DNA of 64,000 nucleotides from the IMG/VR virus record IMGVR_UViG_3300013426_000033; one strand, written 5' to 3'. Positions within the stretch are counted from its first letter, which is position 1, and every line of letters begins with the position of its first letter. This document shows, piece after piece, positions 8,768 through 38,630 of this stretch. Source of the stretch: an uncultured virus (IMG/VR IMGVR_UViG_3300013426_000033) (taxonomy: Duplodnaviria > Heunggongvirae > Uroviricota > Caudoviricetes). A model generated the notes under the pieces. That model was not told where the DNA came from and made no database searches. It worked only from the letters and a program-made list of their open reading frames with translations. The translations under genes and the position numbers were made by a program.

Positions 8768-8892
8768 TGGTGCGTCTGGAGAGATTCGAACTCTCGATAC
8801 CCGCATTATGGGGTTGGATATAAGTCTTGAACTTATCGAGGCCCTAATGCTATCCAACAAAGTGCGGTGCCTTACCACTTGGCCACAAACGC
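8768..8892 (-). tRNA. tRNA-Lys(UUU) with 50-nt tRNA-like insert (8809-8858)
   Basis: CCGCA-CT TT[insert]T AA-TGCGG; CCA. Confidence 0.8.
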
Positions 8893-8899
8893 ATAAATA

Positions 8900-9027
8900 C
8901 TAGAGACATTGTAGTTATGGACTCCTGCCTTGCCACTTGGCTACACTCTTCAACCGAAGGTGCTCGGATTCGAACCGAGGGATGGGAGTTTGGCTTATTA
9001 ACTTTCAAAATTGCTGTTAGTCTCTAC
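8900..9027 (-). ncRNA. ACAGCAA scaffold copy 8 with circularly permuted tRNA
   Basis: ACTCC, T arm CTCGG-TTCGAAT-CCGAG, loop-closed acceptor, D arm GCC-AAGTGGCAA-GGC, GGAGT. Confidence 0.85.
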
Positions 9028-9202
9028 TTTACAAATATCATCTTATTGAAAGGAAATTATTCATATCAGATAGAGAAAAAGGAGAAGTAGCATTTCGTCA
9101 AGTACTAAATCTTTAGCCCTTTGATAGATTTAAGTTCCCCTCATTTAACTCCGATAAAACTTACTCACACTATCATAAGAACGGATTTCTGATTTGAACA
9201 AA

Positions 9203-9288: not shown

Positions 9289-9406
9289 CTAGACTCTTTT
9301 GCGTATTATTCACCACAGAGCGCCCTCTGACGAGAATCGAACTCGCTAATGATTGTTTTCAAGACAATTGTGTTAACCTTTTAAGGAATTTGCTGTAAGA
9401 GTCTAC
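9289..9406 (-). ncRNA. ACAGCAA scaffold copy 9 with tRNA permuted at the D loop
   Basis: ATTGT-CT TGA AA-ACAAT, T arm GCGAG-TTCGATT-CTCGT, CAGAG-GGCG-CTCTG. Confidence 0.8.
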
Positions 9407-9444
9407 TTTTCAATTACTTTTCAGGAGGTTTAGCCTATATTTTT

Positions 9445-10258: not shown

Positions 10259-10350
10259 CCCCCCATAATTGGATTCGAACCAACTTCCTCTCCCGATGTG
10301 GTGTTTACTCACTATCAGTTAATAAGAATGCTCCATTACACTAATGGGGA
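10259..10350 (-). ncRNA. tRNA-like RNA with elongated anticodon arm (pseudo-tRNA)
   Basis: CCCCAT/ATGGGG acceptor, D arm, T arm GTTGG-TTCGAAT-CCAAT; no canonical anticodon loop or CCA. Confidence 0.5.
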
Positions 10351-11662: not shown

Positions 11663-11796
11663 TGGAGCAAGATACGAGATTCGAACTCGCCCTTACGGTT
11701 TTGGTCCTTTAAGTAAGACTTGAACTTACATCAATGGTTTTTCATTAAACTATTAAAGGGGAAGACCGTCGTGCTAACCGCTAACACTAATCCTGC
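11663..11796 (-). tRNA. tRNA-Gly(UCC) with 58-nt tRNA-like insert (11702-11759)
   Basis: ACGGT-CT TCC[insert]AA-ACCGT; U73 CCA. Confidence 0.82.
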
Positions 11797-15934: not shown

Positions 15935-16384
15935 TTAATCTAATTCATAATCTTTTGTCCTACGTCTATATCTACATTCACGAACGAACCAATCTTGTAA
16001 TTCTTTTACAGTCATTGGCTGTGGAGGTGGCTTTAATTCATATTCTCCCTTTTCATTTAAGGGCTGACCAGTATAACAATAAGCTCTAACATAGCATTCT
16101 GCCGCAGGAACCATATCTTCTGGATTCTTCACATAATGGTCAGCTATAAATCCGACTGCAAATTTCCCAGCAGTAGTATAAGTCTTCACGTGCCTTGACA
16201 GACAAAGATACTATCCCCTTTCCATAGCCTTATTGTTATATTTATATTCTCCTAAAGCACAACCAACATCCCATAATTCCATATAATAATCTGTATCTGT
16301 AGGATAAATTTTTGTGCCTTTTACATTTAAGCCACTAAAGTCAATTAACTACTTTGCTCTTGCAATATTTTTAAACAGACTCAT
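15935..16384 (-). CDS. Hypothetical phage protein, possibly PD-(D/E)XK-like (two TAG=Gln)
   Basis: MSLFKNIARAK(TAG)LIDFSG...PTDTD...GEYK...G(TAG)Y continuous with track ORF. Confidence 0.65.
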
Positions 16385-17195
16385 TGGTAAATACCTTTTG
16401 ACTAATAAAGTCTTTGCCTTCTTCACTTGTTAAGATTGGCATTTCATAATCAAGAATCCATTTATAACGAGTAACTTCCTGACCATTCTTACCAATAACA
16501 GTAGTGGGAATACGATAAGCACAAGTACCACGTTTCTCTACTGTTGTATAATCGTTCCAGTTTACACCCTTTTCAGTAAACATCTTATCCTGCAATTTGG
16601 TTGTATTGATACCATGCATCTCGCGCTGAGAAAACAAAGTCTGAGCAACTGCCTGAATAGAGTTGCGAGTACAATCCTGCTGTCTCCACACAAAATAATT
16701 ATGTACTTCAAAAGCAGGGACAACAAATACTCGACTATCAAATGTAGGCATTTCTTGACCTTTGCGAACCATCTTCCAGTCATAAGAATCTTGGTCCATA
16801 TTATAGATATCCAAGGGTGTATCAATAATAGTATTCTCAGCAAAATAATTATTAAACCAAAGAGTACAAAGAGCAGCAGATGTGCTAACAATTTTCTGAA
16901 TGTTATTGTCAAACCAAGGCTGAGAATTTCTTTCACTCTGAATCATAACAAGAGAAATTTCATCAGACTCAACGTAACCGAATTTAACATTAGGAATAAT
17001 TTCACAAAGTTTAAGCATTGTCTGTTGCATGGTTTTAACGAAAATAGGGTCAAAAGGCTTCTTCATACCACGACAAAATGAATGAAAGTGAGCGCCGTCA
17101 TTTCTCATAATAACAGGAAGATTCTCAGGAAGATAATTACGATATTTATTTTCGTAAGCTCCTTTCATTCTGTCACTTAAAGTCTTATACTCCAT
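16371..17195 (-). CDS. thg1: Thg1-like 3'-5' nucleotidyltransferase (tRNA-His guanylyltransferase family)
   Basis: RNDGAHFHSF, KPFD, SDEIS, FDSR, YFVWRQQDCTRNS, KRGT. Confidence 0.92.
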   Translation of the reverse strand: MEYKTLSDRMKGAYENKYRNYLPENLPVIMRNDGAHFHSFCRGMKKPFDPIFVKTMQQTMLKLCEIIPNVKFGYVESDEISLVMIQSERNSQPWFDNNIQKIVSTSAALCTLWFNNYFAENTIIDTPLDIYNMDQDSYDWKMVRKGQEMPTFDSRVFVVPAFEVHNYFVWRQQDCTRNSIQAVAQTLFSQREMHGINTTKLQDKMFTEKGVNWNDYTTVEKRGTCAYRIPTTVIGKNGQEVTRYKWILDYEMPILTSEEGKDFISQKVFTNESV

Positions 17196-18425: not shown

Positions 18426-19670
18426 TTATTTAATCTCCACTAAATATCGAATAGTTACTTGGTCAGGACGATAGAAAATAATTTCAGGATTGCGAAGCAT
18501 TCCCTTTTCAGGAGAAGCATAAACGCAATGACAAGGAGGATTCTTTTTCTGAAGCACATCAAAATTAAAATGATAACATTCAGAAGTATGCTCATAAACA
18601 GTATAAGGATTACCATAAGCCACTTCAAAAATACCCATAAATCCAGTGTTGCTATTTCCTCTTGCCCAATAAGAACCGCTGACACTTGTATAACCAATGC
18701 TCTTTCGAGCCAAAGTGCTAAAATATAAGCCATCGCTGAACATTGAACCTGTATAGACAGCATTTGCAGGACGAATCTTCAAGCCCATCTTAAGAATGTT
18801 AAAGAAATTTTGAGACCTACTACCATGCCACATGAACTTAGTATCTGTAATATTATAATCCTTAACAAAAGAATTAAATGCTTTGTTAGTCTCTAAATTA
18901 TTAACACTCCATGCTTTTACGAATCTATCAGAATCTCGCCCAAGCATCTTTTTAATTCTAGCAATTTCATTCTGAGTAACATCTTCCATAGTGATACCCA
19001 TCTTCTGCAAAATGCTTTCAGAAGCTTTAATCTCAGAATCAGTGTCGGCAATTTTTGCCTTGGGCTTATAAACCTGACCAGCCATAGTATCTAGCAAACT
19101 CTGTTCTTCAGAAAGCTTATTATCATATTCAGAAGAATTAGAAACAAGGCAATCAGAGACACGTTTCATCTTACGAGGAACAATAATAAATAATTCATTT
19201 AAATTCTTATTAAACTCCTCAACAGACCAATCTTTATAATTCGCTGCAATATAATCAATTTTTTCCTGAGCAGCGTCAATCATAGCCTGAGTAACAGCTT
19301 CGGCACGAACAGAATAAGCGGATTGAATAGTCTTATTAGCATAATCCCAAAGACGCTTAATAATTTCACGAACAGACAAATTCTGAACAAGGCCAAATTC
19401 ATCTACACCGTTAGACCCATCTTCAATCTTAGAATCTACAATAATTTCCTGCATCAAATCAGAACGGTCAACATAACCCTTCTTCAATTTAGAGGAGAGC
19501 GTAGAGTTCCATTTGGACATAGGATAAATTTTAGTCTGAGGAGTTGCGCCAACACGACCGAACTCTACTGTGAAAGTGTCTCCATTTGAAGTCATACGAT
19601 AATACTTATTTGAATCAACGCCCTTATTATCAGGACTGACAAAGATTAAATATTTGGGAGTATAATCCAT
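18426..19670 (-). CDS. PARP-like ADP-ribosyltransferase with WGR domain
   Basis: NKYY..FGRVG (WGR); WHGS, GSMFSDGLYF, KSIGY, NPEIIFY (H-Y-E triad). Confidence 0.9.
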   Translation of the reverse strand: MDYTPKYLIFVSPDNKGVDSNKYYRMTSNGDTFTVEFGRVGATPQTKIYPMSKWNSTLSSKLKKGYVDRSDLMQEIIVDSKIEDGSNGVDEFGLVQNLSVREIIKRLWDYANKTIQSAYSVRAEAVTQAMIDAAQEKIDYIAANYKDWSVEEFNKNLNELFIIVPRKMKRVSDCLVSNSSEYDNKLSEEQSLLDTMAGQVYKPKAKIADTDSEIKASESILQKMGITMEDVTQNEIARIKKMLGRDSDRFVKAWSVNNLETNKAFNSFVKDYNITDTKFMWHGSRSQNFFNILKMGLKIRPANAVYTGSMFSDGLYFSTLARKSIGYTSVSGSYWARGNSNTGFMGIFEVAYGNPYTVYEHTSECYHFNFDVLQKKNPPCHCVYASPEKGMLRNPEIIFYRPDQVTIRYLVEIK

Positions 19671-19703
19671 AATTTCATCTCCTATAAGTAAATCTCTATG
19701 ATT

Positions 19704-19732
19704 AGATTACCATAGAGATTTACTTTTGTCAA
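19704..19732 (-). promoter_or_regulatory. SigmaA-type promoter overlapped by a 14-bp inverted repeat
   Basis: TTGACA-N17-TAATCT; AGTAAATCTCTATG/CATAGAGATTTACT. Confidence 0.6.
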
Positions 19733-19772
19733 GAGTTTATTCAGTTATTTTTTACTAATCTAATCAGTTAAA

Positions 19773-20489
19773 TTACTGGTAGCAAAAAGCAATATTAATC
19801 TTATAGCCCTCGGAAATTTCTCCTGCTTCATCAGCTTCATTAATTGCATTAGCAAAAGTGCGAATAATCATAGAACGTACATCTTCCCAATTTAATTTGC
19901 CCTTCCCACAACCAATAAAAGGCATAGCAAGATAAGAAATTTCCTCATTAACACAATACTGTGCAAGGTCTTCAATACAATGTTCAAGATTTGTCATAGT
20001 AATAGATTCATATTTCCTATTTGCAATCATAAGCAAAAACAGATTCCGAATCCAAATTGCTTCGCCAACACATCTGTCTTCATAATCATCTTCAACCTTT
20101 TCAGTAAAATGATAATAGGACTCAAGGCGTCTTGCTGTATCGCTACCCAAAGAAAGGTCGGCAGGAATACCATAACAAATGTTGTAATACGGAGGCATAT
20201 CAAGCAAATCTTTTTGTACCTCTTCATAATTTACATAAGTCTTATTAAGGTTGTCTTCATCATAGTCTTCATCAGCGAACTCAAGTTCACCATCATGCAT
20301 GACAAGAGGACACCCACAATCAGGGCAGTGCATTACTTTTTGATTCAAAACAGAAACATAACCAGAAGAAGCAATGAGTTTACCATTTTCATCAGTAGAG
20401 GCAACTGCGGTAGTAAAATAATCTTTGTCCTGAGTAGAAGTTACCTTTGGCTCATCGACCTTGTAATTGCGACTAAAAATATTAGCCAT
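19773..20489 (-). CDS. Protein with degenerate C-terminal macrodomain
   Basis: ADLSLG, LAMPFIGCGKGKLNW; N-terminal CPDCG. Confidence 0.7.
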   Translation of the reverse strand: MANIFSRNYKVDEPKVTSTQDKDYFTTAVASTDENGKLIASSGYVSVLNQKVMHCPDCGCPLVMHDGELEFADEDYDEDNLNKTYVNYEEVQKDLLDMPPYYNICYGIPADLSLGSDTARRLESYYHFTEKVEDDYEDRCVGEAIWIRNLFLLMIANRKYESITMTNLEHCIEDLAQYCVNEEISYLAMPFIGCGKGKLNWEDVRSMIIRTFANAINEADEAGEISEGYKINIAFCYQ

Positions 20490-29780: not shown

Positions 29781-29857
29781 TACTTATCAATTGTGCTCAT
29801 AATAAGCAAAGACAAAGCAACCCAAACAACTAAAATACCAATTACTGCATAACTCAT
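29780..29857 (-). CDS. 25-aa membrane peptide
   Basis: MSYAVIGILVVWVALSLLIMSTIDK, translationally coupled on both sides. Confidence 0.45.
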   Translation of the reverse strand: MSYAVIGILVVWVALSLLIMSTIDK

Positions 29858-30681
29858 AATTTAGTCTCACTTTCTAAAAGTTCTTTCTTTAAAGAATGTG
29901 CAATCATTGTTCTTTGTACATTTTTCAAGACTTCTTCTACGTCTTTATCAGTCTCAAAATGCTTATCCATTACATATTCATCTACCAAAACTTCTGCTTC
30001 TGTAATTAGGATTTCTGCAACTCTTTTTGCATCTTCAACAGGAAGTGGAGCAGTTTTATAACTAATTAACAATTCAGGGTCTGTAGGAACTAAAATCTTT
30101 TCATAAGTTTCATTTTCTGCAATATATCTTTTAATGAAATCAGACAATCTTGCAATATGGTGAAAATCTTTCAACCCATAACCGTAATTGTCAATATCAA
30201 ACTCGTTATGTGGTGCTCGATGAAGCATCTGCTTATACTTAGTCTTCATATTACCATACATTGTCAATACAGCTTTCTGAGGACAATAATGAGCAATAGC
30301 TTCTCTATTTTTAATAACTGCTCCAAGCCACATACCAGTATATTCTGGATTAAGTTCAAAATATTTAGTAAACAAAGTTTCAATAAAATTGATGTTTTGC
30401 TTTAAATAGCTGTTAAACATCAAACGAATATCTTTTACCTCTGAATGAGACCCATCTTTTTCCACTATTAATTTATTTACACAATTTTTACTATCAATCA
30501 CATCATCAAAAGAGGGTAAGACTATTGTTTTTACATCTATATCTGAATTTAAAGTGTCTAAATTATAATTGCCCGAACCAAAGTAAAAAACTCCCACGAC
30601 ACGAGTTTCGCCATATTCTTCTATGGCTCTTAAATATCTATTTCTTATTTCTAATCTTACACCTTTTTCGTTCAACATCAA
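29854..30681 (-). CDS. Pol-beta-superfamily nucleotidyltransferase
   Basis: GSGNY..SDID, KQNINFIETL. Confidence 0.8.
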   Translation of the reverse strand: MMLNEKGVRLEIRNRYLRAIEEYGETRVVGVFYFGSGNYNLDTLNSDIDVKTIVLPSFDDVIDSKNCVNKLIVEKDGSHSEVKDIRLMFNSYLKQNINFIETLFTKYFELNPEYTGMWLGAVIKNREAIAHYCPQKAVLTMYGNMKTKYKQMLHRAPHNEFDIDNYGYGLKDFHHIARLSDFIKRYIAENETYEKILVPTDPELLISYKTAPLPVEDAKRVAEILITEAEVLVDEYVMDKHFETDKDVEEVLKNVQRTMIAHSLKKELLESETKL

Positions 30682-36269: not shown

Positions 36270-37628
36270 TTACCCTTCCACCATAGAGTTTTTAAAACGC
36301 TTTAAGTTGTTTAGGGCTTTTGTAATTTCAGAATATTTGTAGCAAAACTGTTTCTTCAACAAGAAATCGTTTTCCTGTCCAAGATATTTGGTCTTTGTTC
36401 TGCCCTTTAATACTTTAGGAAGTTTGTCCATCCAAAGCATTGCTTCTTTCTTATCATTCCAAAAGTCTACACACTCTGCATTTCCTTTAATTAAAATTTT
36501 ATCAATTAACTCTTTATAGAGATTAAGATATTCATGAACAGTATTGTAATACTGCATAATTAATTCTCTATACGCATCAGGACACTTCGCTAAAAAATCA
36601 TCAAATCTGTCTTCGTGAATAGCATTAACAACTGCATTAGGAGAAATATTTTTAGATAAAGCTTTATGCATCAGGACATAATCCGATGTTTTAATTTTAC
36701 ATCTAAAATGATTTTTGTATCCATCAACCATATCAATTACCCAACCTTCTTTTTCAGAAGAAAGATAATTGTCAGTATCAGCTAAAATGCTAAATAAAGT
36801 AGCATTATAATACCATTGAGTCATTTTAGAATCATATTCCTCAGCCATATCACTCAGAATATCAAAAGAAACTTCTTTGCCGTCCTTAACATCTCTTGCC
36901 GCAAGTAAATATAAACCTTCTTGAGATTCATCGTACTTAACCACAATGGGGTTTTTAGGAGAAATATACTCAAAAATAAAAGTATAATCAGGATAATCCT
37001 TAATTAATTCTTTCTGTCCATCAGATAAAAGTTTATACCCTTCTGCAAGTCTCCAAGATTCAGCGGGGTCTAATGCCTGAGAACCAGAACCCAAGATTCG
37101 GTCTTCATCTGCAATATATCTATACTGCTGATAAGAACCATCAAGCTTGTTGGTAATAAAAACTTCATGAGCAAAATTATACTTAGACCCAATATTTTTA
37201 GGAGACCAATCACCGTCATCCTCACCGTAGTTTTTAAACTTTGCTAAAGATGCCAGAGCAATTTCATCATTCTTTAAATCAAAAACACAAGAACGACATT
37301 CCCTATAAAGACCATCATATAATTCAAAGAAAGAACTTAAATTATAATCATCAGATAATTCAATAAAACCTTTATACTTAAATAATACATAATGGTCATA
37401 ACAAGTAATCTGAAGAGGGTCAAAAATCTTGTTTAACTTCTCATTAAGTTTAGGAGTAATATTTCCCCATACTTCAAAAACTCTATCAAGCCAATCGTTA
37501 AAATTATAATTTTCAGGACAAGGTTCATTGTTAAGGAGAGTATAAGACTGGATATATTTTCTCTTTACAGTCATAACATACTGATAAAGAGGATGCCAAG
37601 TAAAATTTTTATTGAAACTAAATTTCAT
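36270..37628 (-). CDS. T4 Rnl1-like RNA ligase
   Basis: RECR, KFKN, KLDGS, FEYISP, EGWV, KIK. Confidence 0.85.
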   Translation of the reverse strand: MKFSFNKNFTWHPLYQYVMTVKRKYIQSYTLLNNEPCPENYNFNDWLDRVFEVWGNITPKLNEKLNKIFDPLQITCYDHYVLFKYKGFIELSDDYNLSSFFELYDGLYRECRSCVFDLKNDEIALASLAKFKNYGEDDGDWSPKNIGSKYNFAHEVFITNKLDGSYQQYRYIADEDRILGSGSQALDPAESWRLAEGYKLLSDGQKELIKDYPDYTFIFEYISPKNPIVVKYDESQEGLYLLAARDVKDGKEVSFDILSDMAEEYDSKMTQWYYNATLFSILADTDNYLSSEKEGWVIDMVDGYKNHFRCKIKTSDYVLMHKALSKNISPNAVVNAIHEDRFDDFLAKCPDAYRELIMQYYNTVHEYLNLYKELIDKILIKGNAECVDFWNDKKEAMLWMDKLPKVLKGRTKTKYLGQENDFLLKKQFCYKYSEITKALNNLKRFKNSMVEG

Positions 37629-37664: not shown

Positions 37665-38630
37665 TTATTCCTCAGAAGTTCCGCTTGCAATCTTATCACA
37701 CTCATTAAACAGAAAAAGTTTATCAAGGTTTTCTTTTCCCATAATCTTTTCCCATTTAGCTTTAGATTTTTCAGTTTCAAGGAAGAAAGGAAGCATATGG
37801 AAGTTAATATAAAACAGACATTTTAAAATGTCATCCATATTAGTAAATCCAATACAATCCAGATTTGCTAAAAGGTCATATGTTCCTATATTATGATGAC
37901 TATAATATCTATAATCACCAGAACCATCTTCTTTCGGCTGTCCAGTAGTTAATTTACCTAAATCATGAATCTGTGCGGCTCTATAAAGAACCTTATCATC
38001 AGTTCTCTTAGCTACTTCTTCAGCACAAATCCTACAATGCTCATCTAAAGTATATTTATGATGATGAGTCTTCTGGTCAAAACCTTTCATCAAGTTCGTA
38101 ATATAATCATCATCAGTAGTCCAATTGGACTGAGGAACAATTACTTCAAACTGATTAAAGTTCCAACCAATCAAATTGATAATATCAAAACCTTCCTCAT
38201 AGAAAGGAATCTCAAACTTACCAACCTGTCTATCAATTACTTCTTCAGGAACAGTACGAGTTCTTGCTTTGTTCTGTCGCTTACAAACTGCCACAGGAGT
38301 AGTCATAACATAAGCAACCTTATTGACATTCTCTCTATTGCGAACAATATCAAGTAAACTTCTACGAGACTTAACATTAATATTAGTTGCATCAACAATA
38401 ATATTCATCTTGTCAATGCAATTATTAATACGACGGCGGACTTCTTTAAAGACTTCCTCATTATGAGTCTGGTCATTTACATCTCCAAAAACAGTTTCAC
38501 GAATTTCATCCGACGAAATAATCATTGTAGGCTGACCCATTTTAGTCAACATGTTTTTAAGATTCTGAGCAAGAGTAGACTTACCACTTGCCACAACTCC
38601 AATCATCATCATAAAATTCGTGTGTTCCAT
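37665..38630 (-). CDS. Polynucleotide-kinase-like P-loop + HD-domain protein
   Basis: GVVASGKST, SSDEIR, DATN; HH..TL.EH, HDLGK, HM. Confidence 0.85.
   Translation of the reverse strand: MEHTNFMMMIGVVASGKSTLAQNLKNMLTKMGQPTMIISSDEIRETVFGDVNDQTHNEEVFKEVRRRINNCIDKMNIIVDATNINVKSRRSLLDIVRNRENVNKVAYVMTTPVAVCKRQNKARTRTVPEEVIDRQVGKFEIPFYEEGFDIINLIGWNFNQFEVIVPQSNWTTDDDYITNLMKGFDQKTHHHKYTLDEHCRICAEEVAKRTDDKVLYRAAQIHDLGKLTTGQPKEDGSGDYRYYSHHNIGTYDLLANLDCIGFTNMDDILKCLFYINFHMLPFFLETEKSKAKWEKIMGKENLDKLFLFNECDKIASGTSEE

Follow-up and report, generated by a model that had tools for sequence, protein, structure and literature searches.

The introns described so far depend for their removal on a ribozyme of their own, on the spliceosome or on a dedicated splicing endonuclease, and bacteria are not known to splice tRNAs by means of proteins. 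Group I introns occur in the anticodon loops of bacterial tRNAs, some with homing endonucleases (Azoarcus is one case). The tRNA introns of archaea and eukaryotes lie in a bulge-helix-bulge or at 37/38 and are cut by EndA/TSEN. In tRNA punctuation, tRNA-like elements direct RNase P and RNase Z cuts, as in mitochondrial transcripts, mascRNA and two-piece tmRNA. Phage tRNA clusters also contain free-standing homing endonucleases of the T4 SegB type. Devoto et al. 2019 (PMC6784885) described inserts in tRNA genes of Lak megaphages as "enigmatic" introns and noted for one of them that it might "encode a possible tRNA".

In the window, by which we mean the whole 64,000-nt stretch of uncultured-virus DNA that was analysed, a tRNA-Gly(UCC) gene is split by a 58-nt insert that itself has the shape of a tRNA. 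Like the Lak inserts, it lies in an anticodon loop, contains a tRNA-like element, has alleles with and without it and belongs to a TAG-recoded phage (PMC6784885). The extra 5' hairpin segment of the Lak type was not found. In the available parts of the Lak report, the inserts have about 30 additional 5' bases, forming this hairpin, ahead of the tRNA-like part and are CCA-less, whereas the window insert starts at the first base of its inner element (inner +1). The same parts of that report contain no mechanism, boundary rule or endonuclease cargo (PMC6784885).

The insert and its family share with group I introns the anticodon-loop site, the need for exact excision, GIY-YIG or HNH genes in a dispensable loop, and the short intron that results when this cargo is lost. 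They differ in having no ribozyme core and a frame that mimics a tRNA, for which 44-90 nt suffice in the family. The P3-P9 core of group I, usually longer than 200 nt, was absent from these 58 nt (44 nt in the shortest family member), and in place of the omega G the insert ends in CCA, at a junction fixed by empty alleles. A group II intron was rejected because its six-domain core with domain V was not found and the insert is too small. Rfam scans of the window for group I and group II introns gave no match.

With EndA/TSEN introns the insert would have in common cutting by protein and sealing by a ligase, both proposed here, as well as varied loop positions. However, the signal here would be the intron's own tRNA fold, the setting is a phage, and RtcB is absent. 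Classification as an archaeal or eukaryotic tRNA intron was discarded because the predicted fold contains no bulge-helix-bulge and the family occupies sites 32, 34, 35 and 36 rather than a fixed 37/38. No EndA match was obtained among the 66 window proteins. As in tRNA punctuation, a tRNA-shaped module would set two exact cut sites, but the flanks of punctuation elements stay unjoined, whereas the insert here would require rejoining and is probably mobile. Like SegB-type systems, the family involves related GIY-YIG/HNH proteins in tRNA clusters, with close relatives that are free-standing. It differs from them in that the gene lies inside a tRNA, with a tRNA-shaped frame around it and its stop codon in the T stem. 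In the literature, with subscription journals mostly outside the search, we found no paper on tRNA-mimic introns, their mechanism, an endonuclease-bearing form or a CCA rule. The mechanism proposed below would be categorically new, although the inserts themselves were glimpsed in the Lak phages in 2019.

The insert in tRNA-Gly(UCC) and its empty alleles

The window is AT-rich and phage-like, with almost all genes on the minus strand and a tRNA cluster at 2.6-14.8 kb. Reading TAG as Gln fused many short frames into full genes. The nearest record (G001) was a 24%-complete fragment, and DNA similarity to GenBank phages was confined to generic tRNA matches. A structural parser recognized exactly four nested tRNA genes in the window (Table 1) and none in five mononucleotide shuffles of the 64 kb. 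Apart from two weak matches, all that the covariance model R1 detected in the window were ordinary tRNAs and the four inserts; a further free-standing copy was not found.

Table 1. Features of the nested tRNA-Gly(UCC) gene and of related genes in the window
Feature	Position	Strand	Basis or remark
tRNA-Gly(UCC) 5' exon, positions 1-36, ends after anticodon	11760..11796	-	Equals empty allele in L164/L173
58-nt tRNA-shaped insert, putative intron	11702..11759	-	Structure parse, Rfam, empty alleles
Inner acceptor stem, 5' strand	11753..11759	-	5' junction at its first base; RNase P predicted to cut there
Inner D-like arm	11737..11750	-	With two preceding bases, 15/15 identical to endonuclease-bearing L219, L429
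7-nt linker replacing anticodon arm	11730..11736	-	Sequence read
Inner T arm	11713..11729	-	5/5 pairs
Inner acceptor stem, 3' strand, with discriminator A and CCA	11702..11712	-	3' junction at its last base; RNase Z-type cut predicted there
tRNA-Gly(UCC) 3' exon, position 37 to CCA	11663..11701	-	Equals empty allele
tRNA, anticodon CUA	2635-2709		Accompanies TAG-as-Gln recoding
tRNA-Ile(UAU)	3758..3893	-	59-nt tRNA-shaped insert (3798-3856) after position 36
tRNA-Thr(UGU)	5899..6059	-	88-nt tRNA-shaped insert (5938-6025) after position 34
tRNA-Lys(UUU)	8768..8892	-	50-nt tRNA-shaped insert (8809-8858) after position 35
ATP-dependent RNA ligase of 452 aa, T4 Rnl1-like; candidate for sealing	36270..37628	-	PF09511 E 1e-12, over cut-off; phrog_562 E 2e-33
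Polynucleotide kinase + HD domain, possible end-healing	37665..38630	-	Adjoins ligase

The presence of a 58-nt tRNA-shaped insert splitting tRNA-Gly(UCC) at 36/37 was confirmed. All seven pairs of the inner acceptor stem are Watson-Crick (11759-11753 with 11712-11706). Two linker bases separate it from the D-like stem, whose GTTT and AAAC strands close a 6-nt loop, and the inner CCA occupies 11704-11702. The 58 nt are wholly accounted for by tRNA parts. The Rfam tRNA model matched the insert itself (11705-11759, 41.6 bits, cut-off 29), and together with the minus-strand read it bore out the acceptor stem (CCTTTAA/TTAAAGG-A-CCA), D arm and T arm given in the preliminary description. The outer cloverleaf encloses the insert in a 134-nt precursor (11663-11796). 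Folding z-scores were modest, with -1.87 for the insert and -1.99 for the precursor. The 7-bp inner acceptor stem was present at the junction in the predicted fold, and the minimum-energy fold of the 58-nt form preferred an alternative hairpin over the D stem. A promoter scan placed a site directly upstream of the Gly gene, but the nine sites found compare with 9.3 by chance.

Anchoring on the neighbouring holin revealed 14 close syntenic relatives among 17 loci. Eight of the 14 had a 69-nt insert in the Gly slot and two a 58-nt insert, while three were empty with the same exons and one held another Gly allele. Taking out the 58 bases yields the empty allele (L164, L173) with 0 mismatches and in one register, from inner +1 to inner CCA. 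Because the same exons occur without the insert, both junctions are fixed at these points. The empty alleles of Glu36 and Gln35 also fix one register, inner +1 to inner CCA, and that of Thr34 allows two, this one among them. No target duplication was seen at the insert sites. The Gly exons have two variable positions over eight alleles, and the insert varies in length and in sequence outside its paired ends; its presence among close relatives is patchy.

If such genes are spliced, many phage tRNAs would go unrecognized or be misassigned by annotation tools. The Gly(UCC) gene is given as SeC or not at all: plain ARAGORN misses it, and the intron mode calls SeC. Because the empty alleles with identical exons fit a single register, the host is tRNA-Gly(UCC) and the site is 36/37, as had been claimed, and the identities SeC/UCA and Trp/CCA obtained from ARAGORN with introns were ruled out.

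The insert had also been called anticodon-less. This describes the 58-mer correctly, but not its original state. The linker slot is 11 nt longer in eight relatives and forms a small tetraloop hairpin there (the 69-nt alleles), and other members hold an endonuclease ORF in it. The lack of an anticodon is thus derived, as the eight relatives keep a vestigial hairpin and other members a whole endonuclease gene at this place. A replacement tRNA was rejected as an identity for the inner element, which has only the 7-nt linker and no anticodon arm with a 7-nt loop, the 69-nt alleles having just the tetraloop hairpin. When the structure was compared directly with that of the tRNA-Ile insert, the architecture was the same, in agreement with the preliminary description. 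Its assertion of a fully different acceptor stem proved too strong, since four of the seven pairs are identical. The other three are swapped, and the compensatory change it had noted is general across the insert family.

The 11 RNA runs all had small shares (0.05-0.15), giving no evidence of habitat or expression. In contigs from four runs, one RNA contig covered 11546-11770 unspliced. No joint at the insert was among the joints listed for the four runs, whose contigs had small shares.

The insert family, its endonuclease cargo and its 3' ends

Pattern scans parsed 29 of 122 generic viral loci, 43 of 49 loci in a second scan and 79 of 121 in metagenomes. Most of the search patterns prescribed an inner CCA and a TAA in the T stem. 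Nine more of 25 re-examined generic loci parsed with longer inserts allowed, and the remaining ones were attributed to chance, repeats or tRNA 3' fragments. In cellular genomes one locus parsed among at least 120. This sole parsed case among the cellular-genome matches listed was a Leu(UAA) gene interrupted after 34 in a Paludibacteraceae MAG contig (L309:1154-1224), which may be phage DNA. The pooled family comprised 128 gene variants with 116 unique inserts of 44-907 nt in 66 end-clusters. These fell into 22 host/position classes at positions 32, 34, 35 and 36, and the host tRNAs were Ile, Lys, Gly, Glu, Thr, Gln, Asn, Arg, Leu and CAU.

Pairing was preserved through sequence change. Among 21 short inserts, two-sided change affects all but one of the 12 stem pairs, and pairing holds in 99.2% of cells, a value to be read with the fact that the parser itself demands pairing. 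The D stem, which the parser ignores, was paired at 4/4 positions in 49 of 58 inserts against a shuffled mean of 11.8. The outer stems were perfect in 124 of the 128 gene variants (also parser-biased), and the outer anticodon stem of L593 was broken. The inner sequences were highly variable except for the maturation determinants, and the anticodon arm was the part most freely lost. In seven whole or nearly whole records, none of the 12 interrupted genes had an intact copy; this "sole copy" argument is weak because phages usually have one gene per anticodon.

Some members were unusual. The inner elements at L114:250-324 (Gly UCC within Asn) and L135:341-414 (Asn GUU within Lys) resemble complete tRNAs, and could possibly be ancestors of the family or give two tRNAs from one gene. 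At L084 and L123, the 3' half of a second tRNA comes immediately after a whole tRNA, and a matching 5' half was not parsed within 3 kb.

Twenty-eight inserts measured 586-907 nt, and in 26 of them a long ORF replaced the inner anticodon arm. In 26 of the 28, the longest ORF terminates within the T stem at a distance of 24 nt from the insert end, its TAA lying in the 5' strand of the inner T arm; the TAA was part of the search pattern, and the frame of the ORF was not. The cargo matched GIY-YIG (E 6e-13) and HNH_3 (E 3e-9), with GIY-YIG at Gly35 and Arg35 and HNH at Lys36. By motif, HNH-like cargo was also present at Asn35, Lys35/36, Ile35 and Glu36, and NCBIfam gave no endonuclease match for three motif-only HNH-like proteins. 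A search with the cargo protein matched only distant endonucleases. Many close relatives of the cargo proteins are encoded next to tRNAs as free-standing genes. An ORF tail persists in inserts of 106, 158 and 185 nt, deletion relics that show the loss under way.

The window insert is identical to endonuclease-bearing members at up to 15 of 15 D-side and 18 of 20 T-side bases. The 58-mer itself has no endonuclease ORF, whereas 26 family members at other sites have one, and the family scans found no endonuclease-bearing member at the Gly36 site. Because the 26 long inserts hold the ORF in the anticodon-arm slot, the 58-mer has the appearance of a mobile element stripped of its endonuclease.

In a scan that left the insert end open, 39 of 101 loci parsed and gave 23 unique inserts. 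Twenty of these had a 4-nt tail (18 of them NCCA), all in CCA-encoding outer tRNAs, and the other three, with a 1-nt tail, all lie in outer tRNAs that lack CCA (Fisher p 6e-4, for loci that are not phylogenetically independent). A protein-anchored check free of patterns found a stop in a T stem at 10 of 159 endonuclease loci. Six of the ten run on to NCCA and the host 3' half, while four end at the discriminator, three of these four in hosts that are themselves CCA-less. The intact tRNAs of G051-G053 are mostly without CCA, and the inserts there are discriminator-ended with one 2-nt exception. The correspondence failed for the Thr genes in the window and in G091, CCA-less hosts with NCCA inserts, and the imperfect tails UUCA, ACUA and CCCU and one 2-nt tail were seen. 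Avoidance of a C(-1)/G73 pair (0 of 10 against about 2 expected) was not significant.

These ends can be compared with the published behaviour of RNase Z, for which a T. maritima case is also on record (PMC3161902). In the available parts of one study, the RNase Z of B. subtilis and two archaeal counterparts cut a CCA-less precursor mainly after the discriminator and a CCA-containing precursor right after CCA (PMC7479834). The 3' junction of the family, after NCCA in CCA-encoding tRNAs or after the discriminator in CCA-less ones, matches these cut-site classes in the alleles and scans.

Proposed excision route and its alternatives

The anatomy, the exact junctions, the presence/absence alleles, the covariation, the endonuclease cargo and the ligase genes were observed directly. 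From these we infer how the insert may be cut out, ligated and spread by homing, and by which enzymes. For RNase P an acceptor stem and T arm suffice, and the ends left are 3'-OH and 5'-P. We propose that the insert is a tRNA-mimic intron, and that in the precursor the inner element folds as well as the outer tRNA. Host RNase P, guided by the T arm and acceptor stem of the inner element, would cut at inner +1, so that the 5' exon ends in a 3'-OH. At the inner 3' end, an RNase Z-type endonuclease would cut after CCA if this is encoded and otherwise after the discriminator, giving the 3' exon a 5'-phosphate. RNase P may act first, because long 5' leaders hinder RNase Z in the available parts of the study (PMC7479834). 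The outer stems would hold the exons paired while a phage ATP-dependent RNA ligase seals the loop, giving mature tRNA-Gly(UCC). Homing would spread the family through its long members, whose inner anticodon arm holds a gene of GIY-YIG or HNH type. The 58-mer would be a member that has lost this gene but retains the frame needed for excision. Exact splicing of the putative intron seems to us very likely. For excision by RNase P and an RNase Z-type cut with sealing by the phage ligase, we would put the probability at roughly 0.68.

The TIGR02308 match of the window ligase fell below its cut-off, and no PDB relative was found by sequence. An ATP-dependent RNA ligase was encoded in all 32 insert-bearing records longer than 100 kb, and RtcB in none of them. 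The absence of RtcB beside an ATP-dependent ligase fits 3'-OH/5'-P ends. The ligase was Rnl1 in nine of the 32 and a phrog_968 RNA ligase in the other 23, and Rnl1 was thus rejected as the sole explanation. RNA ligases also occurred in 20 of 37 control records, in 11 of 17 near-complete ones and in 3 of 10 in a weaker first control. In G090, a later record that is 84% complete and has two nested inserts, neither ligase nor RtcB was found. The link with ligase is therefore real but not specific, since controls also often encode a ligase and G090 is without one. PNKP_ligase matched in no record and was uninformative.

The same junctions might be spliced with other enzymes making the cuts, such as a phage nuclease that reads tRNA shape or an RNase E/Y-like enzyme, the kinase/HD protein possibly healing the ends before ligation. 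In the available parts of the respective papers, CCA inhibits the B. subtilis RNase Z, which may not be the phage host's enzyme (CCA precursors were cut 1520-fold more slowly in Mg2+ and 5.8-fold in Co2+; PMC7479834), and E. coli RNase E can cut right after CCA (PMC5291269). The kinase/HD gene next to the ligase is common to six of the seven whole records, and the extra 5' hairpin of the Lak inserts, so far as the available parts of the report describe it, would not be removed by RNase P alone. However, a 3' junction that switches with CCA status is RNase Z behaviour. In families common to at least four of the seven whole records, moreover, no RNA endonuclease besides an RNase H-like protein was recognized by eye from N-terminal sequence. 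Metallo-beta-lactamase matches, weak and partial, occurred in only 3 of 36 records, which leaves a phage RNase Z unsupported as well. Cutting by other enzymes is in our judgement unlikely.

More drastically, a tRNA-wrapped endonuclease could have landed in the anticodon loop as a selfish cassette and killed the gene, the outer halves being unspliced relics. The free-standing cargo relatives beside tRNAs and the broken L593 would agree with this, and phage tRNAs may be dispensable. Yet an insert without an anticodon cannot replace the gene, and the junctions of this one coincide exactly with tRNA maturation sites, where no target duplication was seen. The frame outlives endonuclease loss across the 66 end-clusters, with compensatory change, and near-constant Gly exons beside a variable insert are not what relics should show. 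We consider gene death by such a cassette very unlikely. Another thought is that the released mini-tRNA or the unligated halves are a useful product, for instance a decoy against tRNA-cutting defences, with splicing incidental or absent. Phage tRNAs reportedly counter anticodon nucleases, and U34 anticodons are enriched, in 57 of 66 host clusters against 51 of 99 intact tRNAs. The complete-tRNA-like inner elements of L114 and L135 point the same way. A useful product would, however, hardly vary so much outside its maturation determinants or lose its anticodon arm so freely, and the patchy presence among close relatives is as expected of a mobile parasite. We give a useful product hardly any weight, and retain excision by RNase P and an RNase Z-type enzyme as the preferred reading.

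Taken more broadly, we lean towards a new mobile intron class, in which a homing endonuclease would be disguised as a tRNA anticodon arm and excised exactly from any anticodon-loop position by host tRNA-maturation nucleases, with closure by a phage tRNA-repair ligase. No ribozyme or dedicated splicing nuclease would be needed, and the 3' end would adapt to the phage's CCA habit. Such a class, with a core of 44-60 nt, would be widespread in large phages, and the Lak inserts would be a variant of it. If true, removal by RNase P and RNase Z through tRNA likeness would be a further route of intron removal and would explain the Lak phage tRNA inserts called enigmatic in 2019. Phage RNA ligases would also gain a housekeeping substrate beyond repairing defence cuts. 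The 134-nt precursor, with cut sites predicted to the base, is testable in vitro with standard enzymes, and a 45-60 nt module with scarless excision and tolerance of 800 nt of cargo could, if true, become a tool.

Other elements of the window

The minus strand between 2850 and 10904 contains nine copies of a GAC..ACAGCAA motif, against 0.33 expected. With each copy begins a helix whose closing strand resembles GTC(TAG), and several of the helices enclose circularly permuted tRNA-like RNAs (8295-8425, 8895-9030, 8105-8228 and 9295-9408). Rfam YrlA matched 8302-8400 at 37.4 bits, under its cut-off of 69. These elements possibly represent a second ligase-dependent tRNA route or a Y-RNA-like family. 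An unusual element at 10259-10350 (22.6 bits) resembles tRNA-Ile(GAU) and has a run of G at the 3' end. The segment 5835-5898 after tRNA-Thr and the stretch just downstream of 3758 after tRNA-Ile resemble HDV-like theta ribozymes when judged by eye against their consensus; a simple fold of 5835-5898 gave a z of 0.5, which is not significant.

Two endonuclease genes adjoin nested tRNAs, namely a free-standing HNH-like gene (4958-5836) and a GIY-YIG gene broken into two frames (2878-3675). Both have a C-terminal domain in common with the intron-borne endonucleases. The genes for DNA polymerase III alpha and DnaB are in pieces (41607-47088 and 50406-53245), with LAGLIDADG-like ORFs between, and no Rfam intron reached the gathering score in this region. 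The window further encodes an Acb2/Tad1-like protein (1100-1465, below cut-off), a Thg1-like guanylyltransferase (16371-17195), PARP and macro-domain genes (18426-20489), and a nucleotidyltransferase (29854-30681) of a family common to six of the seven whole records.
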